Sequence record: NC_135728.1
Direction: 5' to 3' (one strand)
From: a phage
Length of the DNA: 64,000 nt
Below are positions 28,590-64,000 of the stretch, piece by piece (the stretch's first letter is position 1; the number at the start of each line of letters is the position of its first letter). The position numbers and the translations under genes were made by a program. The notes below the pieces were generated by a model. The model was given only the letters and a program-made list of their open reading frames with translations. It searched no databases and was not told the origin of the DNA.

Positions 28590-28829
28590 ATGTACAAGTC
28601 ATTTTCAATTTACTCAAGACAGGCGAAACATTACACAGAGATTCTAATCACTCAGAAAAAATCTGTAGAAGGTGAGTGGGAATATCATCATAAAATGTTG
28701 CGTCCAGACTGGGTTTTTGATAGGCTTATTGCTATGATCCCTCTTGGAGAAGTATACCCTCTGACAGGTCATAGGGATGCTTGGGATTTAATTGATTACA
28801 TAGATTCATTTAAGGAGCCTAGTGTATGA
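28590..28829 (+). CDS. hypothetical protein
   Basis: ATG after CAAGGGGG. Confidence 0.45.
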   Translation: MYKSFSIYSRQAKHYTEILITQKKSVEGEWEYHHKMLRPDWVFDRLIAMIPLGEVYPLTGHRDAWDLIDYIDSFKEPSV

Positions 28830-29224
28830 AGATTGAGATCACTAAAGAAGGTAAGAAAGTGTCTGGCGATTATGCAACAGTAATTCGGGATGTAATGTTC
28901 GAAGTAACCCAGACTGGTACGTCTAAGGTTGGTCAAACGGTAAGTGTGCAAGGTAATATTGCCGCAGGTGAAAAGATAATCATCGTGATCAAAGGACAAG
29001 ACCCTGTGGAAGGAACAGTGGGCCGAGGAGGCTACCTGTGTATTTCTGAAGAACCTCGTATGCTGGTTGCTGATAACTCCACAGGTAAAAAGCGGGTATG
29101 TAACACGGACGAGGTGATGATTATCTATCCAGTCAACCCAGATGATCCGGCAACATGGATTGTGGGAAATGAAATCTTCTCTTTAGAAGAGTTATCCTTC
29201 CCAGCTCCGCGCTCTGTTCAGTAA
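28826..29224 (+). CDS. hypothetical protein
   Basis: ATGA overlap; AAGGAG RBS. Confidence 0.5.
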   Translation: MKIEITKEGKKVSGDYATVIRDVMFEVTQTGTSKVGQTVSVQGNIAAGEKIIIVIKGQDPVEGTVGRGGYLCISEEPRMLVADNSTGKKRVCNTDEVMIIYPVNPDDPATWIVGNEIFSLEELSFPAPRSVQ

Positions 29225-29263
29225 TAATTTATCTTACCAGGGACGGTAGAAGTAGGAGGTAGC

Positions 29264-29497
29264 ATGAAAGTTAAATTTCTTACAGATTTAGGGTACCCTT
29301 CCTTGGTTGACTGTGTTGGTAAAATTGTGGAAGCAAAACGGCTATCTGCAAACGAGAATGTTGTCATGGTTAAGGGAAAAGATTTATTAGCTGCAGGTGC
29401 AGAGTCTGGCAGGGTCTCTCCTGACTATACGTATTACCTGTCTTTAAGTAATCTACCAGAACGAGGCGGCAAAGGCCTTGAAGTTGTGGAGGAGTGA
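29264..29497 (+). CDS. small acidic protein, paralog family A
   Basis: MKVKFL... start, acidic VVEE C-terminus; GTAGGAGG RBS. Confidence 0.5.
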   Translation: MKVKFLTDLGYPSLVDCVGKIVEAKRLSANENVVMVKGKDLLAAGAESGRVSPDYTYYLSLSNLPERGGKGLEVVEE

Positions 29498-29502
29498 CAG
29501 GT

Positions 29503-30027
29503 ATGCTTCTGATTAACTGGGAAGACCTCTATGGGGACAAAGACCCTGTTGCGTTTGTTGATCGTAGATGGAGATATACTGAAGAACAACTGGCTGCAAA
29601 AAATTTAACTGCAAAACGCAGAAAGATCATCCAGTGCAAGTATAAATACGCACAGTTTGCTGCAAAAGTGTCTCCCCAAATCGAGAGCTTTGTGCTTAAA
29701 TTGTATGACGAGTACCTCAAATTCAAACTGGATTTTGTACAGGTATACCGTGCACAGATACGCCCAGATACCAGCATTTGTAGATGGAAGGTTGTTTGTG
29801 ACGGTAAAGATTTGCCACTCAGCTTGACAATTGAGCAGCGTTGGGGGTATCATGAGTGCGGTCTGTATGAGACTTGGGATGTCATTGTAGATCCTGCTAA
29901 GTACCTGAACACAGAGGAGCTGGAATATATCAATAAGGTTATTCTCGATATGTTTTTCAGATACACCTGTGAAAACTCTGAGAAAGAACGGGATAATTTT
30001 CTTGACACCATCAGCAACCATCTGTAG
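29503..30027 (+). CDS. hypothetical protein
   Basis: ATG after GGAG (track start is GTG at 29494). Confidence 0.5.
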   Translation: MLLINWEDLYGDKDPVAFVDRRWRYTEEQLAAKNLTAKRRKIIQCKYKYAQFAAKVSPQIESFVLKLYDEYLKFKLDFVQVYRAQIRPDTSICRWKVVCDGKDLPLSLTIEQRWGYHECGLYETWDVIVDPAKYLNTEELEYINKVILDMFFRYTCENSEKERDNFLDTISNHL

Positions 30028-30057
30028 TATACAATTTAACCTACAAAGGGAGGGCTA

Positions 30058-30294
30058 ATGAGTATAAATGTTGTGCTAATAGGTTACCTGGTAATAGCAG
30101 TTATAACAGCGGTATTCTTGACAGGTATATGCATCGTGTCTAGACGAAGGGTGAAGTTTGATGATTTTATCACCATCATCACTGCTGCACCTTTTTGGCC
30201 TATTGTTATCTTCATCGTAATAATGTGCCTAGTTGATTACTACAAGAATATCCGTAAGGAGAAAAAGGAGAGTAGGGATGGAGACCGCGCCTAA
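30058..30294 (+). CDS. small membrane protein (two predicted TM helices)
   Basis: Hydrophobic stretches VVLIGYLVIAVITAVFL and FWPIVIFIVIMCLV; GGGAGGG RBS. Confidence 0.5.
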   Translation: MSINVVLIGYLVIAVITAVFLTGICIVSRRRVKFDDFITIITAAPFWPIVIFIVIMCLVDYYKNIRKEKKESRDGDRA

Positions 30295-30495
30295 AACTGT
30301 TTATACTGTTCTTAAAGAGATTGCGTTCTACGCAGATCTTAGCCAGGCACCTTTATGGGAAAAGAGCATGTATTTAAAATGGTGCGTTAATTTATGGAGA
30401 CCTTCCAGTGTTTCAAGCCATGTTTATTGAGATGCTATCTGGGGTATTGTTACTGGTAGCCATCTTAGGTGGTGCAGTTCTGATGTATAACTATC

Positions 30496-30699
30496 TTGAA
30501 AAAGGAGACAGCAATGGCAAAAAATAAATCTTTAGAGCAGGCTGAAAACCTTCTCCACGAGCTAGTAAAGGAGTGGAAAGTTGAATACTCAGATTTTAAT
30601 GCACGAGAGGGTGAAGATTATTGGCCTACGGAGCGCTCAGAGGGCGAATGGTATCAAGATTTTATAGAGTGGTTATATCAGACGTGTGATGAGGGGTGA
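30496..30699 (+). CDS. hypothetical protein
   Basis: AAGGAGA RBS. Confidence 0.5.
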   Translation: MKKETAMAKNKSLEQAENLLHELVKEWKVEYSDFNAREGEDYWPTERSEGEWYQDFIEWLYQTCDEG

Positions 30700-30701
30700 C
30701 G

Positions 30702-31157
30702 ATGTTTGTTAAATATGTAAAAACGTGCCTCAACAGTCTTGGCAGAGAGCATTGGTACACCTTACTTGAAAAAGGAGAAATTTTAACAAAATCTGGAAAG
30801 ATAACTTTGATACCCTTGGACGATAAAGACCCGTCACTCCTTGTCATAGATGATTACGTTACAGGTGTGTCGTACGAGGTCTCTGTGGAGAGGTTAATAC
30901 GCAGATCTGGAGGTCCTTATGACCGAAGAGAGTATGTTTTCGATTCTGTTACAGAGAAGGAAGATCCGTCTCTAATGTTCAGGATGGTAATCAGAGATAT
31001 GAGGTCATCTATAGACAGGATCGTAAAGGACATTAAGGAGCCTTTTAGGGTAAAAGTTAAGAAGTTTTTTGATTCTAAGATTAACATACTTGCCGTTGTG
31101 CTAGGCGTAATTCAACTTCTGTTAATTTTGCACTATCTTGAACTGTTGTTTAAGTAG
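30702..31157 (+). CDS. hypothetical protein with C-terminal TM helix
   Basis: C-terminal ILAVVLGVIQLLLILHYL. Confidence 0.5.
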   Translation: MFVKYVKTCLNSLGREHWYTLLEKGEILTKSGKITLIPLDDKDPSLLVIDDYVTGVSYEVSVERLIRRSGGPYDRREYVFDSVTEKEDPSLMFRMVIRDMRSSIDRIVKDIKEPFRVKVKKFFDSKINILAVVLGVIQLLLILHYLELLFK

Positions 31158-31217
31158 TGTGCAATAAGGCACAAAGGATGTGCCATAACTAAATAAACTA
31201 AGAAAGAGGTAGAGAGA

Positions 31218-31565
31218 ATGCCAAAGATTAAATCGATATTAATGTGGGTAGCTGTTGTGGCTTTTGTAGGATACTGGACTTGGGAAACTGAATTAAAAGA
31301 TATCGGATATACCAGTCTTGAGAACAAGGCGTGCATTGGCATAACCGATGCATTCAGGCAAAATGCTATGGATCACGAATGTGTCGATGCAGACATAGAT
31401 GAGAAACTGTCTAAGGACAAAGACTTCTACCACGGGTATGCTTTGCTTGATAGTGGAGACACTGTAGAGTTCTGGTCGTGGTTCCGTAAAGATGGAACAA
31501 TAAAAACAGCAGTAAAGATCTCTAACAAAGAGTTAATGCTGTTGCAGCAGAAGGAGGCTCAATGA
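31218..31565 (+). CDS. hypothetical protein with N-terminal TM/signal segment
   Basis: AGAGGTAGAGAGA RBS; N-terminal ILMWVAVVAFVGYW. Confidence 0.5.
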   Translation: MPKIKSILMWVAVVAFVGYWTWETELKDIGYTSLENKACIGITDAFRQNAMDHECVDADIDEKLSKDKDFYHGYALLDSGDTVEFWSWFRKDGTIKTAVKISNKELMLLQQKEAQ

Positions 31566-31849
31566 TCTGGATATCCTATGCTGATGGCACCATGCTGTAT
31601 ACTGCAGGTACCAGATATGAGGTTCAGGAGAACGATAAAAAATTTATCGTAAGAACATTTGACAAGGACGACAACCTTTTGCTAGAATTAACTTACAAGG
31701 TTGGGGATGTATCTAGCATCCAGTTGGATTGCGGTCATAAAGATAACCCACTCAAGAAACCTGGGGTAGGTAAAGCTTCAGAAAAACGCCTGTCTCGTAT
31801 TGCAGAAAGCGTTTCTGCACAAAAATCTAAGAAGGGGACTAGAAAATGA
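31562..31849 (+). CDS. hypothetical protein
   Basis: ATGA overlap; AGGAGG RBS. Confidence 0.5.
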   Translation: MIWISYADGTMLYTAGTRYEVQENDKKFIVRTFDKDDNLLLELTYKVGDVSSIQLDCGHKDNPLKKPGVGKASEKRLSRIAESVSAQKSKKGTRK

Positions 31850-32040
31850 AAAACTTACGTTTTAACACTTATTACTACAACACATTGAATGATTTGTATT
31901 ATATTGTTCGAAGTAAAAGTCCTGAAACAGTCCTATTCTGCCGCGAACCTTTCAAAGGGGAGGAAGTAGAGTCTGAGATGAATGTTAGCCATATTACCTC
32001 TTTGTTGCTCTCAGGTGCAATGGAAGAAGCAATATTCTAA
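31846..32040 (+). CDS. hypothetical protein
   Basis: ATGA overlap. Confidence 0.45.
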   Translation: MKNLRFNTYYYNTLNDLYYIVRSKSPETVLFCREPFKGEEVESEMNVSHITSLLLSGAMEEAIF

Positions 32041-32059
32041 ACCAGGCGGGAGGGTTTTT

Positions 32060-32245
32060 ATGAAGCACTATTGTCTGTCTGGTAGAATGGGTGCAGATTG
32101 TGATTGGGTTTTCTTAAAACTTGTCAGTATTCGAGAGTTCATCCCAGAGGAAGAGCAAGAAAGTGAGCTGATGTCATGGATCAACCATTACGGTAACACT
32201 TTTCGGCATGTTAAGGTGGAAGAGTTGCCAAGCGAGGCTGATTGA
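32060..32245 (+). CDS. hypothetical protein
   Basis: ATG after GGGAGGG. Confidence 0.4.
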   Translation: MKHYCLSGRMGADCDWVFLKLVSIREFIPEEEQESELMSWINHYGNTFRHVKVEELPSEAD

Positions 32246-32247
32246 CT

Positions 32248-32337
32248 ATGATTGCATCAATATTAACGTTTATGGGCGGCGTGGCATTCGGATTCATTGT
32301 TTGCCTGTTTATAGTGATTATGTCTATGCGAGGCTGA
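32248..32337 (+). CDS. hydrophobic micro-protein, 29 aa
   Basis: MIASILTFMGGVAFGFIVCLFIVIMSMRG; packed between two genes. Confidence 0.35.
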   Translation: MIASILTFMGGVAFGFIVCLFIVIMSMRG

Positions 32338-32340
32338 ATT

Positions 32341-32637
32341 ATGAAACTTTTTGAGTGGTTTAAAAAGTTTAAATATAAAGCTGTAGCCATCGTGCCATGG
32401 TCCATTCAATGGGTGGACGATGAGGGATTACCAATTCCAGGTGATAAAGACACGGGATACTGGATCATGCTTGAAAACGGGTTTGGAAAGCGAAAATATA
32501 CGTGCACAAACTCTACTCGATCTGCACTTAATAGAGTGCCTGGTTACAAACTTATGGTTGTGTGGAAAATGTCAGGGGTGCCTCCAGCTAATGCTCAATT
32601 TCTTACTGACAATCCAACCACGGTGGAGGGAGATTGA
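32341..32637 (+). CDS. hypothetical protein
   Basis: Track ORF. Confidence 0.5.
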   Translation: MKLFEWFKKFKYKAVAIVPWSIQWVDDEGLPIPGDKDTGYWIMLENGFGKRKYTCTNSTRSALNRVPGYKLMVVWKMSGVPPANAQFLTDNPTTVEGD

Positions 32638-32639
32638 TA

Positions 32640-32921
32640 ATGAAAAAGATTAACAGTGGTGAAGTTGAGTTTAAACTTGTCGGGAAAGGCACTTACTGGG
32701 AAGTTCGTCAAAAGGTATATTTGTTCGGTCTTATTCCCTATTGGTCTAAATTCTACTGGGGAGCTAACGAGTTGGGAAGATACGCCACCAAATCAATGGC
32801 ACTTATTGGTATAGCAGAGTACATTGCAGCCAGAGATAGGGTTGGAGACACTTATTACTATACTGCGGACGATATTCGTAACAGTGTTTACGTCCCACAA
32901 CCACCTGATGGGGACCGTTGA
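32640..32921 (+). CDS. hypothetical protein
   Basis: ATG after GGAGGGAG. Confidence 0.5.
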   Translation: MKKINSGEVEFKLVGKGTYWEVRQKVYLFGLIPYWSKFYWGANELGRYATKSMALIGIAEYIAARDRVGDTYYYTADDIRNSVYVPQPPDGDR

Positions 32922-33145
32922 TGAAAGTTAAAGTTTTAGATTCAAGCTTCTATATTGGTCAGGAGCCTTTAGTAGGGAAAGTGTTTACTGCTGTCCCTAA
33001 CGAAGATTATCCTGACCTTTTAAAAATAAAAGGTGCAGATCTTATTGCCGCTGGTGCATCTCAGGACTGCTTTGACAGTCAGTGGACCTACAACTTTGCC
33101 CTAGGTGAGGATGTAGAGGTAGTGGAGGACGATCATGAAGGTTAA
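32921..33145 (+). CDS. small acidic protein, paralog family A (cassette 1)
   Basis: MKVKVLDSSFYIGQ...LIAAGA...VEVVED. Confidence 0.55.
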   Translation: MKVKVLDSSFYIGQEPLVGKVFTAVPNEDYPDLLKIKGADLIAAGASQDCFDSQWTYNFALGEDVEVVEDDHEG

Positions 33146-33389
33146 AATTCTTGATTCTAACGTCTACTTGGGACAATCCTTCCTGAAGGGAAAGGTCGTT
33201 CCTGCGGTATACTTTGAAGGGTTGCCGTGGGATGATCCTGTGCGGCAACATCACAGTTATGTAGGCCACAACGTGGTGTTTATCTTGGGATCAGACCTGA
33301 TCACCGCTGGTGCACCTGAATATTATTTCGGGGAAGAGTCCTATTATGCCTTTGGGGTAGGGTCAGATGCGGATATTGTAGAGCTGTGA
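33135..33389 (+). CDS. small acidic protein, paralog family A (cassette 1)
   Basis: MKVKILDSNVYLGQ...LITAGA... Confidence 0.55.
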   Translation: MKVKILDSNVYLGQSFLKGKVVPAVYFEGLPWDDPVRQHHSYVGHNVVFILGSDLITAGAPEYYFGEESYYAFGVGSDADIVEL

Positions 33390-33401
33390 TGGGTAACCGT
33401 T

Positions 33402-33800
33402 GTGAAAAATAAACTGTTTAAAGTTACAATGAAAATTCGCGGAGCTTGGAGCGTAAAGCAAGGGCGTATTCCGGAATTTGAGAAAGACTTCTACGTAGTC
33501 TCCACCTCGGAGGAGGCTGCATGCTGGCAGGCTGGCTATGCCTATGCAAGAACCTGGTACGAAGGATACCAGACCGGGGGATATGACGGAGAAATTATCA
33601 GCAGAGGTGTGGAAGAAATTAATGTGTTGACAAGTGAAAAAGTTTTTGTTATAGTGCATCCAGATTCCAGAGTGAAGCATTACTGGAACGCCAGAACAAA
33701 AACTTGGACACCGTTTGCAGATTCTGCTACGCCACTTTTAAACCAGAAAGCTCTTGACTCTGCCCCAAGTTATGGGATTGTTGAAGAAAAGCTAAACTGA
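33402..33800 (+). CDS. hypothetical protein, paralog family B (cassette 1)
   Basis: Shares LFKV..., HPDS..YW..TWTP.. with 35607-36002; GTG start. Confidence 0.55.
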   Translation: MKNKLFKVTMKIRGAWSVKQGRIPEFEKDFYVVSTSEEAACWQAGYAYARTWYEGYQTGGYDGEIISRGVEEINVLTSEKVFVIVHPDSRVKHYWNARTKTWTPFADSATPLLNQKALDSAPSYGIVEEKLN

Positions 33801-33817
33801 AACAGTGAGGTACTAAC

Positions 33818-34108
33818 ATGATGGATTTAGTTCTGGACACGGATAACACCGGAGAGTTTAAAAAGGATGGTGTAACAAGCGTTGACCAATCCTTCCCTGC
33901 CAAGATTGACTCAAAATGGACCTACAAGTTCGATGGAGAGATCTTCGCAAATGATGAGAAGGTTGTAGATGCTGCAGCCATTTTGAACGCTCTAGGGTAC
34001 GACCCTGTGAATTCTTTGATCAAGGATCCTGTTGAGTTTGCAGAGTATGTTCGAAAAATGGCAGATCTTGCTGTGGATATTTTAAAAACTATCGACGACA
34101 AGCTGTAA
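33818..34108 (+). CDS. hypothetical protein
   Basis: GTGAGGT RBS. Confidence 0.5.
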   Translation: MMDLVLDTDNTGEFKKDGVTSVDQSFPAKIDSKWTYKFDGEIFANDEKVVDAAAILNALGYDPVNSLIKDPVEFAEYVRKMADLAVDILKTIDDKL

Positions 34109-34114
34109 AAACTG

Positions 34115-34143
34115 TTGACACAACGCTTCAGATTTAGTATCAT
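34115..34143 (+). promoter_or_regulatory. sigma70-like promoter TTGACA-17-TATCAT
   Basis: Directly upstream of the HPF homolog. Confidence 0.5.
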
Positions 34144-34190
34144 TGTTTTCAAAGAGGGTTTGGTTCCCTCTTCTTTAAAAGGAACACGTT

Positions 34191-34508
34191 ATGCAAATTG
34201 AAATCACTGGCAACGTAGAAATCACTGAAGGTATGGTGTCTTTCATTTCCCACAAAATGTCTAAGCTGGAGCGTTTGCACCCATCTGCCAACTATGCACG
34301 TGTGAGTGTAAAAGTTGAAAATGATCACCAGGAAGTTATGGCGTTCATTTTTGACAATTCTGGAAAAGAAGTTATTGCCAAGGCTAAAGGCAGTGATGCT
34401 TACGAGGCAACTGACCGTATGGTAGATGTTGCAGCACGTCAGCTGGCTAAATGCGGTGGAAAGAAAGGTAAGGGGAAAGGCAAAGTAAAGATTGACTTTG
34501 GAGAATGA
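34191..34508 (+). CDS. hpf: ribosome hibernation promoting factor / RaiA-family homolog
   Basis: Colinear with E. coli HPF: MQIEITGNVEITEGM...KLE...VKVE...GSDAYEATD...ARQLAK, plus a basic KGKGKGK tail. Confidence 0.85.
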   Translation: MQIEITGNVEITEGMVSFISHKMSKLERLHPSANYARVSVKVENDHQEVMAFIFDNSGKEVIAKAKGSDAYEATDRMVDVAARQLAKCGGKKGKGKGKVKIDFGE

Positions 34509-34517
34509 GGTGCTACA

Positions 34518-34619
34518 ATGGGTGTGATTAAGAAATTAGTCCCAAATGTAGAGATTGCATGCTTTGAAATTATGTTTGCAATCGCAGTTGTAGTTAATGT
34601 GTTAGGTTACGGCTATTAA
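34518..34619 (+). CDS. hydrophobic micro-protein, 33 aa
   Basis: GAGGTG RBS; MGVIKKLVPNVEIACFEIMFAIAVVVNVLGYGY. Confidence 0.35.
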   Translation: MGVIKKLVPNVEIACFEIMFAIAVVVNVLGYGY

Positions 34620-34645
34620 TATCAAATAATTGAGGAGACCTCTAA

Positions 34646-34915
34646 ATGAAAATTAAATTATTCAAAACCGAGCTGGCAGACAAAAACTGTGGACTGGTTG
34701 AAGGCATGATTGTCGAAGCACAACCAGTTGACTATATGAAGGTGGTTCGTGATGCCCTGGGTGAAGGTTTTGATCTGATGGAGCCAGCTCTGCGAGAAGA
34801 TGTTATCGAGATGGCTAAAAAGCACACACCTGAAGGCATGGTGGTGTTTGTTGCACCGGGTAACGGAGAAGAGTTGATTGTAACTCCTGATGTGTATGAG
34901 ATTGTAGAGGAATAA
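34646..34915 (+). CDS. small acidic protein, paralog family A
   Basis: MKIKLFK... start, EIVEE end; GAGGAGA RBS. Confidence 0.5.
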   Translation: MKIKLFKTELADKNCGLVEGMIVEAQPVDYMKVVRDALGEGFDLMEPALREDVIEMAKKHTPEGMVVFVAPGNGEELIVTPDVYEIVEE

Positions 34916-35006
34916 TCCTGCTTGGATTAGCAGGCTTCCTCGATAAGGAAGGTTTGTAATTATTTGTGGGAAAGGAATCCCAATCTCTTACCAGAGGTGA
35001 TACTAT

Positions 35007-35270
35007 ATGATTGTTTATTTTAAAACTTCAGGTGGATACCCTGATTCTCAAAGCTTGATCGGAAAAACGTGCACAGCATACTCACCTCTTGATGAGGAGG
35101 TAGGCGATATTCTACGAAATATGTATCGGATTGATCCTCAAGAAGCTTTTGATCAAAATCTTGTATTTGTCAAGGGCTCAGACATGAAGTCTTTGGGAGC
35201 ATTCCCTGAAGCAGATGATGATGCCGTTTATTCGTTCATGACTCCTTTTGAAGCTATGGTTATTGGGTGA
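35007..35270 (+). CDS. small acidic protein, paralog family A (cassette 2)
   Basis: GAGGTGA RBS. Confidence 0.5.
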   Translation: MIVYFKTSGGYPDSQSLIGKTCTAYSPLDEEVGDILRNMYRIDPQEAFDQNLVFVKGSDMKSLGAFPEADDDAVYSFMTPFEAMVIG

Positions 35271-35275
35271 TAATA

Positions 35276-35607
35276 TGAAAGTACGCTTTATTGGTGAAAC
35301 AATTCCTGTGCATCTCCGGTCGCCTGAGGATTCTGCAGATCTTGCATCTCAAAAGGCGAGAGGCTATGATAAGAAAGTAATCTCAACCGATGTAGTGCTT
35401 GAGGCTACTAGTCTACCTGACCCCGCTGCATTCTTTAATCATTATGGATACTATTTCAGCAATCTGATGAATATCGGTGAGCTTGTGTTTATTAGTGGTG
35501 GAGAAATTGTTAGCAAGCTTGGCGGCGATCCGGATGTCTTTCATGAAACCTGTCCTTTTGCATTTGTGGTGGGTTCAGATGTGGAAGTTATTGAGGAGGT
35601 GCGGTAA
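35276..35607 (+). CDS. small acidic protein, paralog family A (cassette 2)
   Basis: MKVRFIG... start, VEVIEE end. Confidence 0.5.
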
Positions 35608-36002
35608 TGGTAAGCCTATACCGTGTTGAGTATAGCTCAGATACTGTATACAACGTAAGAAGCAAAGATCGCAGCGACAGAGTGCAAGAAATGTATGTTC
35701 TTGCCGACAGTCCGTTATCTGCAGCGTTCAAGGCAGGGGCTCTTGCATCTCGTTGGAAATTTGAAGGCGGATCTTTCTATGAAGAAACCCTTGAAGATTC
35801 TGTTGTTATTTCTTCTGTAGAGGTTTCAGATGACTACGAAGGGAAAAAGTTCGTAATGCGGCACCCACACAGTAACATTGCGTACTACTGGGATGTTCTG
35901 AACAACGAGTGGACCCCAGATCTTCAGAAGGCTACTGTGCTAACACCGTTTTTGGCAGATAAGTTCCCACCAGAAGGTAATTTATCCGCACTGTTTCAGT
36001 AA
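35607..36002 (+). CDS. hypothetical protein, paralog family B (cassette 2)
   Basis: LYRV..., HPHS..YW..EWTP.. shared with 33402-33800. Confidence 0.55.
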   Translation: MVSLYRVEYSSDTVYNVRSKDRSDRVQEMYVLADSPLSAAFKAGALASRWKFEGGSFYEETLEDSVVISSVEVSDDYEGKKFVMRHPHSNIAYYWDVLNNEWTPDLQKATVLTPFLADKFPPEGNLSALFQ

Positions 36003-36020
36003 TTTTCTTGCACACAGGTG

Positions 36021-36050
36021 TTGACAACACCAACCCTGTGTGAAATAATA
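36021..36050 (+). promoter_or_regulatory. sigma70-like promoter TTGACA-17-AATAAT
   Basis: Consensus -35, moderate -10. Confidence 0.35.
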
Positions 36051-36081
36051 CCTTCATCTTAACAAGACAGGAGACTGATTG

Positions 36082-36339
36082 ATGAAGATTAAATTGAAAA
36101 ACCTTGAAACGGCAGAGATTCAGGACGGTGTAGATTTCCGTTCTAAAGATGGTGACATCTTAGAGGTAAATCTTCCAACCTACGAGCTGATTAAAGGTTT
36201 TGGCAACGTTCAGGAAGAGGATATTCCAGAAATTCTTATGATGTTGATTCTTGACGGAACTGTGTTTGTAGGTGAAGGTGAGAACGCTATTGCAATCCCA
36301 GGCCATTTTTATGAAGTAGTTGACGAAGAGGTGCTGTAA
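36082..36339 (+). CDS. small acidic protein, paralog family A
   Basis: MKIKLKN... start, VVDEEVL end. Confidence 0.5.
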   Translation: MKIKLKNLETAEIQDGVDFRSKDGDILEVNLPTYELIKGFGNVQEEDIPEILMMLILDGTVFVGEGENAIAIPGHFYEVVDEEVL

Positions 36340-36690
36340 ATGAAAGTAGAAATTACTGGTTTTGATGTTAGTGTGGTTCCGGAAGATATTTTAGCTAACT
36401 TACCGGAAGGTTTTGGTAACGGTGTTGTGGTGGATGCTGTTCCTCCTACCAAAGACATTCTGCTGCAGTATGGTGTAGCAGAGGAAGATGTCGATAAAGT
36501 TCTTACAATGATGGCAATCGATCGTGTTGTCGTTGTTAAAGGTCTCGATAATTTTGAGAGTGATCCTCTGATTATTCGCGGAGATGACTACAAAATCATC
36601 GATAATGAAGGCCAAGAGTTCTATGAGCCTTGTGCAGAAGATATTCTTAACTTATTACTGGAAGCAGGCACCGAAGAGGAGGACGAATAA
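36340..36690 (+). CDS. small acidic protein
   Basis: MKVEITG... start, EEEDE end. Confidence 0.5.
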   Translation: MKVEITGFDVSVVPEDILANLPEGFGNGVVVDAVPPTKDILLQYGVAEEDVDKVLTMMAIDRVVVVKGLDNFESDPLIIRGDDYKIIDNEGQEFYEPCAEDILNLLLEAGTEEEDE

Positions 36691-37019
36691 TGAAGATTGA
36701 CCCGTTACTGAAGGCTCGTGCAGAAAAAGCGTACACCATTAAGTTGACCAACTTGGTTCCTACTTGTCATCCGGATGTAGGTTGGCCAGAAGGTTTGGTG
36801 GAGGGAACTGTAACAGCTGCATACCTTCCTAACATCAAATACCTCATGGAAATCTTGGAGCTGGATGAGGAAACGGCAGAAGAGTTCCAGTTGGACATGA
36901 AACAAAGTGGGACTCTGGTTATTCACGGGTGGTACAATACTAAAGATGCAGAAGATCCTCTGGTAACTTCTAATCTGGCATATGAAATCTTAGGACCTTT
37001 GAACCTGGAGGAAGACTAA
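36690..37019 (+). CDS. small acidic protein
   Basis: TAATG overlap with the upstream gene. Confidence 0.5.
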   Translation: MKIDPLLKARAEKAYTIKLTNLVPTCHPDVGWPEGLVEGTVTAAYLPNIKYLMEILELDEETAEEFQLDMKQSGTLVIHGWYNTKDAEDPLVTSNLAYEILGPLNLEED

Positions 37020-37306
37020 TGAAAGATCTGGTTAAGATTAAGATTAAAGATACCAATGGAGAACTCAGCCATTTTGGAATTAATGATGGTGACGAGCTGA
37101 TCGCACACCTGCCTACCAAGGAGGTTGTAAGCAAAGCAGTTGCCGGAGAAGAAGCTGCAATGCAGGCTGCAGGTGTGGATGAAAACTATGTAGCTATGTG
37201 CATGTGCCGAGATCAGGTTGTTCTGTATAAAGCGTATCGACCAAACGGAGCCACGGAGTGGCTTGTATTCCGACCCGAAGGATATGAAATCTTAGAGGCA
37301 CTGTGA
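37019..37306 (+). CDS. small acidic protein
   Basis: TAATG overlap; MKDLVKIKIKD... Confidence 0.5.
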   Translation: MKDLVKIKIKDTNGELSHFGINDGDELIAHLPTKEVVSKAVAGEEAAMQAAGVDENYVAMCMCRDQVVLYKAYRPNGATEWLVFRPEGYEILEAL

Positions 37307-37395
37307 TAAATCTTGCCAAGGTTGCAACGGCACTGTTAATTATTTGCTGGTCAGTAACCTTAACACTGTGTCTTGTATTTCAGTGAGGTGCTTGT

Positions 37396-37659
37396 ATGAA
37401 CATCCTGATGTGGGTTATAGCAGTGGCGTTTGTTGCATGTTTTTGCTGCTGGGTTGCGGTGAGGATTTCTGTAGCTACCCTTCGGAAGTTGGGGTTCTCA
37501 GAATGGGATATTAATATCCTTTCTTTTCGCAATGAAACAATCTCAGCCGCCCTGCTTTGTAAGAAATTCAAGTGGGAACCTTGTGAGGTCATGAACTATC
37601 TAAGAACAGGTGATATTCCTGAAAGATTTAAAAAAGTTCTTGACGGCAAGGATAAATGA
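37396..37659 (+). CDS. small membrane protein (N-terminal TM helix)
   Basis: MNILMWVIAVAFVACFCCWVAV; GAGGTG RBS. Confidence 0.5.
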   Translation: MNILMWVIAVAFVACFCCWVAVRISVATLRKLGFSEWDINILSFRNETISAALLCKKFKWEPCEVMNYLRTGDIPERFKKVLDGKDK

Positions 37660-37687
37660 CAGTATAGTGACTAACAAGAGGTGAGGA

Positions 37688-37828
37688 GTGACTGATTTTA
37701 CTGAAGCTTTAATGATGGCCTTGTCTGTTTTAGCGCTATCGGTGTGTTTTGGGGCGTTATTCACATCTCTGGTTAAAGTTTTACATACAGTATTATTACC
37801 CAAGGAGCGCAGTAATGACGAAGATTGA
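37688..37828 (+). CDS. small membrane protein, 46 aa
   Basis: GTG after AAGAGGTGAGGA; TM-like ALSVLALSVCFGALFTSLV; overlaps next gene start. Confidence 0.4.
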   Translation: MTDFTEALMMALSVLALSVCFGALFTSLVKVLHTVLLPKERSNDED

Positions 37829-38066
37829 CTTGAATGCTGGCGACCATGTTGTTGTCAAATGCATCGGAGATTATCTTGGATTCACAATCGGCAATACTTA
37901 TGAGGCGGTAGTGGCGAAGGTTTATCATGATAAAGTCCTCAGTCTTGTATTTGACTGCGATGATGATGGGGATGACCGATACGTCTGTGAGGTGCTGGCA
38001 CGAGACGATAGTGAAGACCAGAAATTCCTGGTTATTGAACTGAACGGTATTTTTGTAGAACGTTAA
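37815..38066 (+). CDS. hypothetical acidic protein
   Basis: ATG after AAGGAG (track start is further upstream). Confidence 0.5.
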   Translation: MTKIDLNAGDHVVVKCIGDYLGFTIGNTYEAVVAKVYHDKVLSLVFDCDDDGDDRYVCEVLARDDSEDQKFLVIELNGIFVER

Positions 38067-38094
38067 TTTAAAACAACATAAGGAGACTCTTACT

Positions 38095-38400
38095 ATGGCT
38101 AAATCTAAAGTTGAACTGTTCACCTCTCTTCCTTCTGACACTGCAGAACGTGATCGCCTTCGCAAAACAATCGAAGAACTGGTGGAACTCCAGCTTCAGA
38201 TTAAAGATCTGAAAGATGCCATCAAGGATATCATTCTTGTTGAGAAGCAGGATCATCTGTATTCTCCTAAATTCATCAAATCTTTGGTGGCTACAGAGTT
38301 TGATATCCGCTACGAAGCTGAAAAACGTCGCGCTAAGATTGAAGAAGAGGTTGAGCACATGTCTGAGGCAGACATTCTGTTCAAACGCTCTGTAGAATAA
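38095..38400 (+). CDS. hypothetical protein (coiled-coil-like)
   Basis: AAGGAGA RBS. Confidence 0.5.
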   Translation: MAKSKVELFTSLPSDTAERDRLRKTIEELVELQLQIKDLKDAIKDIILVEKQDHLYSPKFIKSLVATEFDIRYEAEKRRAKIEEEVEHMSEADILFKRSVE

Positions 38401-38406
38401 TATGGC

Positions 38407-38436
38407 AGAGGGGCTACGGCCCCTCTTTCACTATTT
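38407..38436 (+). terminator. rho-independent terminator
   Basis: AGAGGGGC-TACG-GCCCCTCT followed by TTCACTATTT. Confidence 0.65.
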
Positions 38437-38452
38437 GCAAAAGGAACCAGCT

Positions 38453-38779
38453 ATGAGAATGCCAATCACTGTGAAAGAGCTAAATGAACGTGATGCAGGT
38501 GGTCTATGGCCTGCACGAAAAATCCGCTGCGTCTATATGAAAGAGAATCTTGAACATCTTGATCAACAGATCAAGGTCGGTGATATTTTCGAGGTCTTCT
38601 ACTCCAATCGTCGCAACTGGGAAACCATTCAGCCTTCTGGTTTTGTTCTTGCCAAACTTGACACTGGAGAAGTGATTATCCCTGGGTTGGATATTGTCTT
38701 CGAAATTATCCAGGAGTGGGATCCAGATAAGATTAGATACGAAGAATTATTCGGTAAAGGTATTATCAAACCTGTGTGA
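38453..38779 (+). CDS. hypothetical protein
   Basis: Start placed after the terminator hairpin (MRMPITV...). Confidence 0.45.
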   Translation: MRMPITVKELNERDAGGLWPARKIRCVYMKENLEHLDQQIKVGDIFEVFYSNRRNWETIQPSGFVLAKLDTGEVIIPGLDIVFEIIQEWDPDKIRYEELFGKGIIKPV

Positions 38780-38787
38780 GGTGGATT

Positions 38788-39087
38788 ATGTCTACAAAGG
38801 CGGCTAAATACTCCTATATGCCATCAACCTCTGCAGAGGTAGACTTTAGTTTCGATGTATTTCCACTGTTTGAGGTGGTTCTGGCATACCCTACAATACT
38901 ATCTACTCCTGAATCACTTGTGCCTGTTAAGTTGCAGAACGCTATGCATTCCATGCACTACAACAATAAATGTAGGCACAGATGGTGTCAGGACGAGGAA
39001 AAAGATTTGGATAGTTTGAGGGATTTTGACAGTCACCTTTTGACACCTTTCAGCTACTCCAACCTTGATAAGCCCTCATGGGTATAG
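38788..39087 (+). CDS. hypothetical protein
   Basis: ATG after GAGGTGGA. Confidence 0.45.
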   Translation: MSTKAAKYSYMPSTSAEVDFSFDVFPLFEVVLAYPTILSTPESLVPVKLQNAMHSMHYNNKCRHRWCQDEEKDLDSLRDFDSHLLTPFSYSNLDKPSWV

Positions 39088-39111
39088 CAAAATATCAAAT
39101 TTAAGACACCT

Positions 39112-39141
39112 AGGACGCTCTGTGGCGTCCTTTTCTTTATC
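39112..39141 (+). terminator. rho-independent terminator
   Basis: AGGACGC-TCTGTG-GCGTCCT followed by TTTTCTTTATC. Confidence 0.6.
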
Positions 39142-39300
39142 TGGTGCACGATTGCATACCTTGGGTAGTTAATCTCATTACAGAGCGTTTAAGAGCTTCC
39201 TACAAACAACTCCATATTTCGAGCGTAGCGAGAACGCACGTCCGTTTTGACCCAAATCACCATACGCTCGGATTTTAACCAAACCCTCGCGGCGTTTCTG

Positions 39301-39329
39301 TTGACACATTGCCGCTCCAGTGATAGTAT
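39301..39329 (+). promoter_or_regulatory. sigma70-like promoter TTGACA-17-TAGTAT
   Basis: Consensus -35, good -10. Confidence 0.5.
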
Positions 39330-39354
39330 CCACACATAGTCTGGAGAATATGGA

Positions 39355-39660
39355 GTGCACAATGAAAACATTGTCCGAAGTTTTGGTGGTGATCCTGATG
39401 ATCATTACGTCCATAGCGGCTGTTGCCGGAATACTCACGGGTGGAACATGATAAACACACATGCATCTGAAGAGACATCCAAAGGAGTGACTATATGTCC
39501 CTTGACTGAGCCAGTGCAAGAGGAAAACTTCGATTCTGAAGATTCTCCATCTTTGCTCCAGGTAGATCCTGAGGCTGATGACCTAACGTGGGAAGACATC
39601 GTAGATATCTGGTTCTCTATTATGCCTGAGCACGAAGAGTTCAGGGGTGGTAGACTATGA
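39355..39660 (+). CDS. hypothetical acidic protein (start uncertain: GTG 39355 or ATG 39448)
   Basis: GGAGAA RBS before GTG; alternative ATG 39448 overlaps the stop of the micro-ORF below. Confidence 0.4.
   Translation: MHNENIVRSFGGDPDDHYVHSGCCRNTHGWNMINTHASEETSKGVTICPLTEPVQEENFDSEDSPSLLQVDPEADDLTWEDIVDIWFSIMPEHEEFRGGRL
39362..39451 (+). CDS. alternative hydrophobic micro-ORF, 29 aa
   Basis: GGAGTG RBS; MKTLSEVLVVILMIITSIAAVAGILTGGT; mutually exclusive with the GTG-39355 reading. Confidence 0.3.
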   Translation: MKTLSEVLVVILMIITSIAAVAGILTGGT

Positions 39661-39781
39661 AGCACCGAGCCCACACAGGTTCCTCATGCTAAAGCATGGC
39701 CTGAAGAGGCAAACGTGTATAATTCCAGCGTATTGGGACGTATAAAACCCAGTTCACACTCTCATTTCCAGAGGAGATTTC

Positions 39782-39997
39782 ATGAAGATAGAAATATTTG
39801 GTGGGGCTGACAACACTCGTGGCCTGATTTACCTTGAATTCGATGAATCATACCTGCCAGAGGTGTTAAATATGGACTCTGTTGCTGAGGCTTTGGGAGT
39901 AAGTCCTAAAGATCTCCACTCTGGTGCTGAGATTGATGGTTGGGAGGAGACCATGAACATCGATTTCAGTGAAGTAGGGGATGAACCACTGGACTGA
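39782..39997 (+). CDS. small acidic protein
   Basis: GAGGAG RBS; last rightward gene before the non-coding hub. Confidence 0.5.
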   Translation: MKIEIFGGADNTRGLIYLEFDESYLPEVLNMDSVAEALGVSPKDLHSGAEIDGWEETMNIDFSEVGDEPLD

Positions 39998-40346
39998 CAC
40001 ACAATTAGTTGCCCGGCTAAAGTGCTGGGAGCACCCATAACACATCTTTCAACTAAATTTCCTACCACCACAATCACTTACCTCCCACACATGACTGTTT
40101 GCTTGTTTAGTGAGCAGTCATGCCTTGACATTCTTGCCTATCCTGATAAAATTAAGTTCTTCTCTTTTCTTTTACCGAGTAATTCGGGTTTTCTGTTCTC
40201 TTCGGTTTGAAGGGGTATGGAGATACACCTGAGTGAACAGGGTGAACAACCGAACCATTGGCTATGGCATTAGCATGGCGAAGCGGACGGGTGACGAAAG
40301 AGGGGCCGGAGGACACCAGTCACTGCCATATGATATATGGGTGATA

Positions 40347-40865
40347 ACCTGAAGAGTCTGAATAAGTGTTTAAGTACCAGTCAGAGGAAAAGGTGAATGG
40401 TAGCCGAAGGGGGAGGGGGGTTACCTGCTTCTGTAAACATGCATCTGAAATACTACTTTAGATAACCTGAACCTGCCTTTCTGACAAATATTCCCTATTA
40501 AACTTGAATTATTTATAGAAAATACCACAACACCACTTAAGTCTTTGATTTTACACACAAATCTTACAGATATTAAACCTCTCTATTTAACATACCTGTA
40601 ACATATACTATACTCCACCTGTCTGATCAATTTCCCCAACTACATCCCCATATTTTCCCTGTCTGTACTACCCCTGCCCCGCCGGGAGTCCCGTCATATC
40701 TGGCTTTCCAGCAAATATCACACCCACAAATATCATCACCTGAAGAGGGTTTCATCCCATAATACATGCCTTACCTGAAGAGCGCTTCATATACCCCGTA
40801 AATTTTTTAATTGACCCCCTCCCCGCCGCCGGAGGGGTTGGCTTTTCCCACACAAACCTGAAGAG
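40347..40865. repeat. dispersed direct repeats of ACCTGAAGAG (4 copies)
   Basis: Copies at about 40347, 40738, 40773, 40856; ACCTGAAC variant at about 40463. Confidence 0.5.
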
Positions 40866-41425
40866 TCAGCCAGAAATATCTGAACAGCCAGTTATACCAC
40901 GATTTTGTGCTTGTCCTACAGGAGTGCTTCCCTGTCAGGAGCCGGTAGCGACTGGAGTGCTGCCAGGCGGACGAAATGGGAATACTTCTCATTCTTATAA
41001 CAATTCTCAAATATCGAGGCAGTGAGGCAAATTAATAGGTGAGGCCGTTCACACAGTGGCACAACATTTGCAACCTATCTTGTGGGATTGAATGAGAATA
41101 CCTATCATTGTGAGAACTGTTATCATTACGGGCAATTTAACATAATACCCATTATGCGCACCACTGGCGATACATACAGGGATTTATAACATGAGTTACT
41201 GTTTACGTATATAACAATTATATTTCTTACTATTTGTGTGGGATATAGTTAGCAGCCGATAGATTAGATATTGACCTGCAGACTTCCAACCGTCTAGACG
41301 TCTAAACGCCCACACAACAAGGTTTATACATACATTACTGAATGTAAACAGGGCCGCAAAAATGCTACCATACAAGATTGTAAATTTTTCATGCAGCACT
41401 TGACAAAGAGGAGAAAAACTTGTCT

Positions 41426-41505
41426 GACACTTTAGACACAATAGTGACATAATATGACACCTTTGACACACTGGACACATTAAACATAATTGACATGCCT
41501 GACTG
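41426..41505. repeat. iteron-like array of GACA(C/T) repeats phased every 9-11 bp
   Basis: Eight copies: GACAC, GACACA, GACAT, GACAC, GACACA, GACACA, GACAT, GACT. Confidence 0.6.
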
Positions 41506-41540
41506 TTTACATAGCTAACTATTTACTAAAAAATGATAAG

Positions 41541-41852
41541 CCATGCCATTCGTTTGCATGATAAAGATTAGCAAGTTAATAATCTTTCGCTGGCTATGCC
41601 AGGTGACCTTTGGTCACCCCTTCGGGTGTTTCTATGACATAATATAAAAGCAGGGCAACTATTAGCAGATCATAGTTGCCTTGCTTGTTAACACCCTTGA
41701 GACGAAGGCTTTGCCTGAGTTTATGTCATGATTAACTAAATACAAGGCAACTATGATCTGATTAATAGTTTGCAGACAAACTATCACGGGGGTGATGGTT
41801 ACTGCTTTTATATTATGTCGCGACTCCGTCGCGCCATGCCATTCGTTTGCAT
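41541..41852. repeat. nested repeat complex: 19-bp direct repeat, 18-bp inverted repeat and internal palindromes
   Basis: CCATGCCATTCGTTTGCAT at 41541 and 41834; GACATAATATAAAAGCAG (41636) inverted at 41802; GGTGACC-TTT-GGTCACC; GGCAACTAT-N9-ATAGTTGCC. Confidence 0.6.
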
Positions 41853-42477
41853 AGTTGCCTTATTGTTACGAATAAAACAATTGCATTGTTAATGATTTCT
41901 TATCTTTCTCTTAGTCATCTAATGATTCCAGTCAGTCTAGTAATGTACAGTAAACATTAGACGACTAAAGATTTCCCTGTTTATGATAACTCACCGTGAT
42001 AATTTCAGGCTGTTTACTAAAAATGTTGACACCTAAGCTGATTTATGTTATGCAGTTTACACGAATAATTATTTTATGCAGGTATTGACTATTCCGTTAT
42101 TCTATGGTTGGAATAAATACTTAGCAGACTATAGAATGGTGAGCGTACGTAAATTCTGAGATCTGGCGGCTATAGTTATACTCGATTTTTCACGTAGAAC
42201 ACGCTTTTGTGAGTGTGTAAGTGTATGACTTATAAAGATTTTTAGTTGTTGACAAGATATTGAAGATGTGCATCAGGTTAAATTTTGTGCAATAGCGGCA
42301 TTACGTGCAATTCTGAGAGAGAAAACGGGTAAAAATGGCCCTGCTACCACAAGATGAAAGATTATGCAATAGTTATTTTTATATGTATATTTGTACAGTA
42401 GGGTTAATTGCTGGCTTGTTGATTATTCCACTTGCCAGGTGGGGCCGTTTGTGGTAGGAGAAATACAGACAAAAAGA

Positions 42478-42508
42478 AAGGGGCCTTTTAAAGCCCCTGA
42501 TAGTTTAG
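42478..42508 (-). terminator. rho-independent terminator of the leftward block
   Basis: On minus strand GGGGC-loop-GCCCC followed by TTTCTTTTT, just past gene 42517-42936. Confidence 0.6.
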
Positions 42509-62207: not shown

Positions 62208-62483
62208 CAATAGTTCAGGTAGGTCGTTAAGCTACCCCGCACCATTACGTGCATAGCCATACGTTTTCACGTAGGATCGGACCATCTCATATTCCTATGA
62301 TAAGCAACCACAGGAATCCTCCCATTTCGACCGCACTTGCTGGTCTACTTCCTTTCGGAATGGCCTCTGAGCGTTCGCTCTTTTGAGCGCTTCGTTGCGG
62401 ATTACCTTGCCATAAGGTTTAGGCTTCCCGCAGTTAAAGAGGTTATTCGACATAGATTACTCTATGAAGCCACAATGTTATTT
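62208..62483 (-). ncRNA. putative group I self-splicing intron (276 nt) in the DNA polymerase gene
   Basis: Interrupts the ORF between the H and D codons of motif C; exon ends in U, intron ends in G; GUGG guide 11 nt into intron can pair with exon CCAU; P-like CUGCGGGAAG, Q-like AAUCCGCAAC, P7 strands GACCA / UGGUC. Confidence 0.65.
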
Positions 62484-64000
62484 ATGGTAATAAATAATAC
62501 GACGAACACCTTCATCGTACCACCCACGCTTCACCATTTGGTGGTGCATGAGTATCCCAACTAAGTCACACAGCGATGCACCACCATTTTGTTGGTATGC
62601 ATTAAGTAAAGAGTGTTTAGATCTGGTCCAGATAGCATGACCATCGAAAGAGTAGATAAACTTCTTACCTGTTGCTTCCCAGAATTTCTCCAGATCCTCT
62701 TTGCGCCCCTTAAGACCGGGGTTGGCATCCCAAAGTGCATCTATTACCCTTTGCCCCAACTCTGGAGAGATGTCCAACATATCTGCAACTTTATCTTTTT
62801 GTGCCCCGTACATAACACCATACGTGATAGGTTTACCGTCGTTACGGGACACCTCTCTGCCTGCTACTTTTGTATATGCCTCGGCATTGTTTTGGTGTGC
62901 GTCTCCGTTACTTACAACATCATAATACAGGCCGTTGTCGAACTCAAAGGCACCCCAAGCCCCGATAAGCTGCTCTAAGTTGGACCCGTCAATACCGATC
63001 TGAAAGTATCCGGGAGGAACACCCCATAGACTACGCATCTCTTTACCCATAACCACTTTAGGAGATGGTTTAGGCATGTTTGCACAAATACTGTGTTTCT
63101 GTCTGGAAGTGTTTGTTAGCCCAGAACTTTTAGCAGGAAGCTTATGGTCAATCTTCAAACGTGGGTGATTAAGAAGACCAGTATCAACCTTATCCTCCTT
63201 GATTGGGTCAAGGACCGATCTGCGGTTTCGCAATGATAACCACAAGACGATATCTTTAGCCATCTCTCCGTTCAATTTTTCAAGATTCGGACACAGGTGT
63301 CCAAACGTATCTTTCAGTTGCGGAGAAGTAATAAGTGCCCTGGCTTTTCTACGTATTTTCCCGAACACTTCCTTTTTAATCCTTTCGGAGTTAGGAAAGC
63401 TTCGGAACTTGTGCACGGTTGTCTGGAACTTAGCATCAGTTTTGTTCCAGAAGTTGATAATTAGGTCACAATACTCTGACTCTAAAAGCTCGTCCATATA
63501 AGCATATACTCGTGCATCAACATCTGCATCAGGTAGAGCTTTCTTCTTGCTGTCTTTAGTTACATCCTTAGTTCTCCACATTGTCGGGAGCCAGCCAGCG
63601 CTGATCAGATACCGCTTAATGTCGTCCTGATTGCTGATTTTCATAGGTATCTTGCAGTCCGGCATTCGCTTCTGCTGTAGATCACTTATTGCCTGATCCA
63701 TCAGCTCTTTAGGCAAAGGGTGTGGTGTGGAAGTTCCCTTAATATAGCCTCTCAAGAAATCAGCCATCTTATCGGGGTCTTTGCAGCCCATCTCTTCACA
63801 CCATTTTATCCCCATCTTGCTGACATCCCCTGTAGAGGTAAATGCTCTCTTAGGCGGGGCTTTGAACTCTAAAGCGCTCATGTCTACAGGATAGCCAAGC
63901 TTATCTTTTAACCATTTCCAACCATTATTAGAGATTGTCCCGTCTTGGTTAAACGGCTTTTCAGGGAACTTGGGCCGCTGAGACATTGACAGCTCTTTTA
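62484..64000 (-). CDS. DNA polymerase family A, exon 1 (partial; N-terminus may lie beyond the window)
   Basis: Motif B-like KPITYGVMYGAQ; ends ...VRRIIYYH (cf. Pol I RMIMQVH-DE); reading frame stays open upstream of the track start at 63986. Confidence 0.8.

Follow-up and report, generated by a model that had tools for sequence, protein, structure and literature searches.

We begin by considering T7 Ocr, ArdA and T4 Arn, small acidic early phage inhibitors that act as DNA mimics, because the genes of interest here resemble them in size, in acidity and in being small genes with host-type promoter matches. These genes lie on the + strand of a 64,000-nucleotide stretch of phage DNA (sequence record NC_135728.1; this whole stretch is called the window, and genes are named by their first position in it). 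The window comes from a Vequintavirus, an rV5-like E. coli phage, and is 96-97% identical to known isolates; the 11.2-kb region at 28826-39997 is 96-97% identical to many Vequintavirus genomes, among them vB_EcoM_10C2, MaxTheCat/Bas57 and FFH2. The genus consists of rV5-like E. coli myoviruses with genomes of about 136 kb. In rV5, the counterpart region contains mainly small open reading frames (ORFs), and 2.6 kb of non-coding DNA, on which two transcription units converge, closes it off (Kropinski et al. 2013, PMC3606486); paralogues in this run of small ORFs go unmentioned in that paper, and Vequintavirus records label nearly all genes there "hypothetical protein". We find that ten of these uncharacterised genes become two defined families with a predicted fold: G1 (29264, 32921, 33135, 35007, 35275) and G2 (34646, 36082, 36340, 36690, 37019). 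As to what they do, our favoured answer, close to an even call though we would not term it probable, is that they are two old, conserved paralogue families of small acidic SH3-like barrels serving as host-specific, early-expressed protein binders.

The division into two families of five is made because blastp, hhalign, leave-one-out hidden Markov models (HMMs) and a profile of external sequences concur. When 35 local proteins are compared all-versus-all with blastp, 29264, 32921, 33135, 35275 and 35007 are connected at E 2e-14 to 0.015 and 36082, 36340 and 37019 at E 3e-4 to 0.09, and pairwise hhalign on orthologue alignments agrees with this grouping. The targets for the leave-one-out HMMs were all 349 six-frame ORFs of 50 aa or longer. 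For every member of G1 and G2, the omitted gene is always the top new match (E 9e-19 to 8e-6 in G1, 1e-8 to 1.3e-3 in G2), against E 0.1-1 for the best unrelated ORF. With a profile restricted to 39 homologues from outside Vequintavirus, the five G1 genes (6e-23 to 4e-6), and no others, are retrieved. A preliminary description of this DNA, made without database searches, had listed ten genes and a possible eleventh as one family and proposed a profile HMM as the check. The ten genes exist on the + strand, with a single correction (the ATG is at 35275, not 35276), and on proper alignment the relationship is detectable within each group (E 1e-19 to 1e-3 against noise of at least 0.1). Paralogy thus stands, but what the sequence proves is two families of five rather than one family of ten or eleven.

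The G1 gene 29264-29497 (77 aa, pI 5.4; left-out HMM E 1.3e-7) overlaps the next gene, 29494 with a GTG start, by 4 nt. The remaining G1 genes belong to two modules, since a G1-G1-G3 gene order occurs twice: 32921-33135-33402 (module A) and 35007-35275-35607 (module B). Module A opens with 32921-33145 (74 aa, pI 4.05), the G1 protein that we model below. It is followed, with an 11-nt overlap, by 33135-33389 (84 aa; blastp against 32921 E 2e-14, left-out HMM E 2e-16), which has an insertion between strands 2 and 3, and then by the G3 gene 33402-33800 (132 aa with the GTG start, 123 aa with the ATG start at 33429). Module B opens with 35007-35270 (87 aa, starting MIVYFK; left-out HMM E 8e-6, external-only profile E 2e-7), with an insertion of about 20 aa between strands 2 and 3; the second gene, 35275-35607 (110 aa; left-out HMM E 1.3e-6, hhalign to 33135 92%), has two insertions, and the G3 gene 35607-36002 (131 aa) overlaps it in a TAATG. 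The two G3 genes, both phrog_7379, are a third paralogue pair that the preliminary description had left off its list; they match each other at blastp E 3e-8 and hhalign 94%, are 28% identical, and keep the invariant residues H-P...Y-W...W-T-P. A Pfam search with G3 gives no match. Three E2 enzymes are the top PDB matches for 35607, at E 0.4-0.8 only; this suggestion of a ubiquitin-conjugating-enzyme-like protein was discarded, for the signal is lost in a profile search, which gave instead a repeat-summation artefact on designed Kelch proteins.

In some Vequintavirus contigs (P0011, P0016, P0017), we observe chimeric single genes of 70-73 aa that join the N-terminal half of 32921 to the C-terminal half of 33135. 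The junction is a common AAGA motif, and these chimeras therefore point to recombination between tandem paralogues.

The G2 gene 34646-34915 (89 aa, pI 4.4) stands isolated between gaps of 137 and 91 nt; its left-out HMM gives E 1.3e-3 against noise of 0.6, and it matches 37019 over the full length in hhalign. The other G2 genes form a coupled operon with the junctions TAAATG, TAATG and TAATG. It starts with 36082-36339 (85 aa, pI 4.08), the modelled G2 protein, which abuts 36340-36690 (116 aa, with an acidic C-terminal tail; left-out HMM E 1.4e-8). The next gene, 36690-37019 (109 aa), has an N-terminal extension and is the weakest member (left-out HMM E 7e-4 against noise of 0.36), and the last, 37019-37306 (95 aa; left-out HMM E 3.8e-5), aligns with 34646 in hhalign across 85 columns. 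In the 79-nt gap before this operon sits a sigma-70-like promoter candidate (36021-36049, + strand; TTGACA, 17-nt spacer, AATAAT, with a TG; 11 of 12 consensus matches), identified by the consensus match alone. In phage phiWec189 (L010, 9001-9249), an allele of 51% identity takes the place of 36082, while the neighbouring genes are 98-100% identical, which suggests a local allele swap.

We next consider how far G1 extends beyond this genus. G1 corresponds to PHROG 5009, of unknown function in PHROGs, with the related families phrog_13367, 7345 and 8603. The full-length phrog_5009 matches are 29264 (E 1e-35), 32921 (2e-38) and 33135 (3e-32), with 35007 weak at 1e-4; 35275 has no direct phrog_5009 match and is retrieved by G1 profiles at 1e-6 and 4e-6. 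In PHROGs, 35007 and 35275 each form a singleton family. Word-limited protein searches return almost only Vequintavirus orthologues, and the wider family is seen by an exhaustive profile search of 1.84 billion representatives, which gives 59 G1 members at E 1e-3 or better, mostly of about 70 aa. All 40 external homologues match phrog_5009, with the consensus MKVKLLNDGGYxG...GKVVxA...VxGxELIxAGA...YxF...ExEVIEE over about 70 aa. Some homologues are tandem repeats (three copies in P0095, two in P0121) or fusions (P0129, with DUF3310). Outside Vequintavirus, G1 occurs in E. coli lambdoid prophages of the mEp021 type, where it lies between the late-gene regulator Q and the holin, and amid early and replication genes in Pantoea phage AH01 and in a 42.5-kb phage contig. 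The four such contexts examined hold one copy each and show no G3 neighbour and hence no G1-G3 linkage; five G1 copies per genome are unusual by this comparison. G2, by contrast, is found by sequence search in Vequintavirus only, and each of its genes matches its own singleton PHROG alone, five singletons in all; its sole structural match is in Vibrio phage Vc1 (TM 0.78, 33% identity). No G1 or G2 member has a match in Pfam or, by sequence, in the PDB, and the PADLOC defence-system HMMs match none of them save for one chance-level hit at E 0.04.

The AlphaFold model of 32921 (pLDDT 91.7) has strands at residues 2-5, 21-26, 33-37, 56-61 and 65-69, and that of 36082 (pLDDT 88.2) at 2-5, 26-30, 61-63, 70-72 and 77-80; in the latter, two helices (34-57) separate strand 2 from strand 3. 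By these predictions, one modelled member of each family is an SH3-like barrel, and the two are of the same fold class; the comparison is by strand order and fold class. The loop between strands 2 and 3 that holds the helical insert of G2 is also the site of the insertions in the long G1 members 33135, 35007 and 35275. The closest described folds are the SH3-like barrels of SH3, KOW, PsaE and the PhnA C-terminal domain, which match the modelled proteins with low scores and at 4-25% sequence identity. The modelled proteins differ from them: G1 and G2 have neither a proline-peptide binding signature nor a KOW motif, and the two-helix insert of G2 is absent from the SH3, KOW, PsaE and PhnA C-terminal domains. 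SH3-like is, on these models, a fold-class assignment and not a family membership.

Do the two families share an ancestor? Possibly G1 and G2 form one superfamily, and we consider common ancestry rather probable. The competing explanation, quite possible though it falls visibly below an even chance, is that they are unrelated and have converged on a small barrel, the MK(V/I)K start and the E(V/I)VE end being generic strand features combined with coupling constraints. In keeping with convergence, the HMM of either group misses the other (G2 genes respond to G1 and external profiles at E 0.03 or worse), the hhalign probability between them is 12.5% in global mode (P 5e-4) and 4.9-14.5% in local mode, the N-terminal motif also occurs in clear non-members, and the Glu-rich C-terminal ends double as ribosome-binding sites. 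These are to be set against the fold class, strand order and insertion loop that the models have in common, and against the interleaving of G1 and G2 genes within one 8-kb stretch, where 34646 (G2) lies between G1 genes. Moreover, the profile alignment is collinear (an MK-V/I-K strand, G-x-V-x-A, a variable insert, V-V-F-V and E-V/I-V-E), and its local score of 22 compares with 8.5 +/- 1.7 for 150 column shuffles, none of which reaches it (about 8 standard deviations), the score covering only about 25 N-terminal columns. As sequence evidence for a link between the families, this is suggestive only.

The traits by which the genes were originally grouped turn out to be wider than the families. 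A six-frame translation of the 64 kb contains the motif MK[IV][KERD][ILFV] 10 times, nine of them as gene starts in the + block at 28.8-40 kb. It is not diagnostic, however, because three clear non-members carry it: 28826, 39782 and an unrelated basic protein at 46920 on the - strand. The product of the ribosome hibernation factor gene 34191 begins MQIEITG. The gene 28826-29224 (132 aa, starting MKIEIT) matches phrog_5748 and shares only its first 5-7 residues with the families, with no significant profile or hhalign match beyond; 39782-39997 (71 aa, very acidic), the eleventh candidate, matches phrog_12108, gives an HMM E above 6 and an hhalign probability of 2.5% or less, and is dropped. Neither gene is retrieved by any G1, G2 or external profile, and for 39782 too the resemblance is confined to a start of 5-7 residues; 28826 falls within the range given in the preliminary description but was not among its listed genes. 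The proteins are small and acidic as described, with pI 4.05-4.8 for most members (29264 being the exception already given) and net charges from -1 (29264) to -10 (32921), -13 (36082) and -22 (36340), but acidity is the norm among the small genes of the block and not a mark of the families alone.

The ATGA and TAATG overlaps are likewise real, and many genes are coupled, but they are not family-specific: the gap is 4 nt or less at 15 of the 34 junctions between consecutive genes at 26.6-40 kb. A Shine-Dalgarno site precedes most starts. In six coupled family genes, the C-terminal Glu/Gly codons (GAGGAGG, GGAGGA, GAGGTG) are at the same time the Shine-Dalgarno site of the next gene, which partly explains the "acidic C-terminus". 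The E-V/I-V-E pattern is also kept in the uncoupled 34646 and 37019 and in distant homologues, and it forms the last barrel strand. A consensus scan finds strong TTGACA-type promoter matches in the intergenic gaps, on the + strand only, and in rV5 only sigma-70-type promoters were found (Kropinski et al. 2013, PMC3606486).

Compared with four relatives, the ten genes have dN/dS of 0.07-0.09 and protein identities of 95-100%: they are real coding genes, kept by purifying selection. The paralogues are old, with 24-47% identity among themselves. Arms-race hypervariability was considered and set aside, as the orthologues are nearly invariant (dN/dS about 0.08), the only exception being the 36082 allele of phiWec189.

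We turn our attention to the functional data, which come from a relative. The HIDEN-SEQ preprint (10.1101/2025.11.20.689424) gives in its supplementary table phage transposon sequencing (Tn-seq) that includes Bas54, that is, MaxBurger (MZ501093), and all Bas54 results in this text are taken from it. We mapped Bas54 genes to the window by blastp; identities are 93-100% over all genes of the block, and the ten family genes fall at 96-99%. On E. coli K-12, all ten orthologues tolerate insertions: bas54_0146-0149 (the G2 operon), 0158 (33135), 0159 (32921) and 0166 (29264) are classed as non-essential, and bas54_0151 (35275), 0152 (35007) and 0153 (34646) as "intermediate". On the uropathogenic strain CFE311, bas54_0150, 0151 and 0152 are at zero reads at all 59 TA sites of the resampling. 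For bas54_0152 (98% identical to 35007), this means zero reads at 14 of 14 TA sites, with log2FC -7.16 (q 0); bas54_0151 (98% identical to 35275) has log2FC -6.17 (q 0) and bas54_0150 (99% identical to the G3 gene 35607) -6.77 (q 0). The G3 gene of module A is also depleted (bas54_0157, 33402; log2FC -2.14, q 0), bas54_0153 (34646) is at -2.78, not significant, and the flanking bas54_0149, like 0148 (36340), 0166 (29264) and the other family genes, is unchanged. At least one gene of the cassette 35007-35275-35607 is thus needed on CFE311, and the data do not single out which.

The closest functional parallel in the same experiment is bas54_0140, the gene against the predicted defence system DS-28 of CFE311. 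Its orthologue, 38788-39087, lies in the same block and is 99% identical, and like module B it is dispensable on K-12 and required on CFE311. It differs in being unrelated in sequence to both families (phrog_12072) and in having a defence-system partner identified experimentally, unlike 35007, 35275 and 35607. The authors tied only bas54_0063 and bas54_0140 to DS-28 and left module B without follow-up.

How would barrels of this kind work? The barrel genes would be transcribed from host-type promoters soon after infection, with candidates predicted at 34492 and 36021, and each barrel would be a small protein-binding module that neutralises or redirects one host protein, for example a strain-specific defence or stress factor, so that the paralogues jointly broaden the range of strains open to the phage. 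In both G1-G1-G3 modules, the G1 proteins would probably act together with the G3 protein. Protein is preferred as the ligand because an acidic SH3-like barrel is likelier to bind protein than nucleic acid. Genes that are conserved, dispensable in a laboratory strain and, for one cassette, required in a natural strain fit a host-specific accessory role. Their context is one of small genes behind host-type promoter matches and next to the reported anti-defence gene 38788; for the early role, the context is that G1 homologues elsewhere lie amid early and replication genes or in the variable region of prophages between Q and holin.

Several points weigh against this proposal. The binder role is an inference, and early expression is suggested by promoter consensus only. 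The orthologues are not hypervariable, unlike many arms-race genes. Eight of the ten genes have no phenotype in either host, and the pattern of being dispensable on K-12 and required on CFE311 is seen for 35007 and 35275, subject to polarity on 35607, and not for the other eight. Indeed, insertions in 0151 and 0152 could owe their depletion to polarity on the G3 gene 0150, in which case the G1 genes themselves are maybe not required; polar effects are, according to the authors, not widespread in the HIDEN-SEQ data. The Tn-seq comes from Bas54 and not from the phage of the window. Finally, in supplementary file 9 of the preprint, Data S6 and S7 are identical, and the sheet labelled CFE303 carries the CFE311 command line; this sheet is a duplicate of the CFE311 comparison, and the data for Bas54 therefore cover only one clinical strain.

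In one alternative, the G1 proteins are adaptors or chaperones for G3, with no target of their own, each G1-G1-G3 module being one complex with G3 as its active part. The repeated gene order, the tight coupling within the modules and the gaps of 79-137 nt that flank module B are as this alternative would have them, and so are the zero reads for all module B genes on CFE311 together with the depletion of the module A G3 gene; in addition, of all G1 pairs across the two modules, the second-position genes 33135 and 35275 are the most alike. We nevertheless regard it as doubtful: G1 homologues in other phages are single and have no G3 neighbour, the gene after 29264 is not G3, and insertions in the orthologues of 33135 and 32921 are not depleted on CFE311, though the downstream G3 gene is.

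DNA mimicry, by which the proteins would block restriction-modification or other DNA-binding host enzymes, was the role put forward in the preliminary description, and it now appears distinctly unlikely. It would account for the very acidic members (36340, -22 in 116 aa; 36082, -13 in 85 aa; 32921, -10 in 74 aa), and the block does contain an anti-defence gene. The same acidity, however, is common to most small proteins of the block, is owed in part at the C-terminus to embedded Shine-Dalgarno sites, and is nearly lacking in 29264, with a net charge of merely -1. Both models are compact SH3-like barrels and show no known DNA-mimic fold; their shapes are unlike the elongated helical or charge-array shapes of Ocr and ArdA, and no similarity in sequence or fold to T7 Ocr, ArdA or T4 Arn was found for G1 or G2. 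The phage group of the window is itself restriction-sensitive: the Vequintavirinae are "exceptionally susceptible" to type I-III restriction systems and seem to be without effective protection (Maffei et al. 2021, PMC8594841). It is the fold together with this sensitivity that makes an anti-restriction DNA-mimic role unlikely. The preliminary description was thus right in spirit, since host interaction fits the Bas54 data (dispensable on K-12, one cassette depleted on CFE311), and probably wrong in detail, as DNA mimicry and restriction inhibition are unsupported. A role in tuning phage transcription or translation as small barrels that bind nucleic acid (KOW, Sm or cold-shock-like), as the ribosome hibernation factor gene 34191 in the same block might suggest, is highly improbable: every member is acidic (pI 4.05-5.4), a property that disfavours RNA or DNA binding, none matches a Pfam RNA-binding family, and the orthologues are dispensable on K-12.

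Returning to host-specific protein binders, a bolder version, which we offer as speculation and consider rather unlikely, is that the ten barrels and the two G3 proteins make up a modular counter-defence toolkit of a new structural class, its SH3-like binders, singly or in G1-G1-G3 complexes, each disarming a different strain-specific immune or stress protein of E. coli, with module B directed at a defence of CFE311 and PHROG 5009 acting likewise in many other phages and prophages. If the barrels do inhibit host defence, PHROG 5009 would be a widespread new anti-defence family; if they do not, this is an ordinary case of paralogous accessory genes in a large lytic phage. In either case, five singleton PHROGs are merged into one family (G2), and module B is a three-gene cassette with a published, unexplained host-specific phenotype. 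As candidates for therapy, the rV5-like phages are common and broad in host range, and of their approximately 90 small genes most are without known function.

Some further observations concern the surroundings of the two families. The ribosome hibernation factor (RaiA/HPF-like) gene lies mid-block at 34191-34508, behind a TTGACA-17-TATCAT promoter match, and its Bas54 orthologue is non-essential. Six genes (30696, 31218, 31562, 31846, 32060 and 32341) have no full-length match in MaxBurger/Bas54 (for 32341, only 19% matches), and the content of the small-gene block therefore differs among close relatives. In FFH2, the gene annotated as "virion structural protein" is orthologous to 30696, a gene outside both families, and the idea of a virion protein was dropped.

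Downstream of the block, at 40000-42500, the + and - gene blocks converge on about 2.5 kb that is free of ORFs. Within it, a GGCAACTAT-type motif recurs in both orientations, direct and inverted, at 41645-41868; perfect inverted repeats of 18 nt are found at 41636/41802 and 41666/41743, and a direct repeat of 20 nt, likewise perfect, at 41540/41833. Because the Bas54 counterpart of this stretch takes no transposon insertions (10.1101/2025.11.20.689424), the stretch may act in cis as an essential element, for example as an origin. Farther downstream, on the - strand at 62258-62493, there is a group I catalytic intron (Rfam RF00028, 64.7 bits, E 4e-14), with model positions 1-253 complete.

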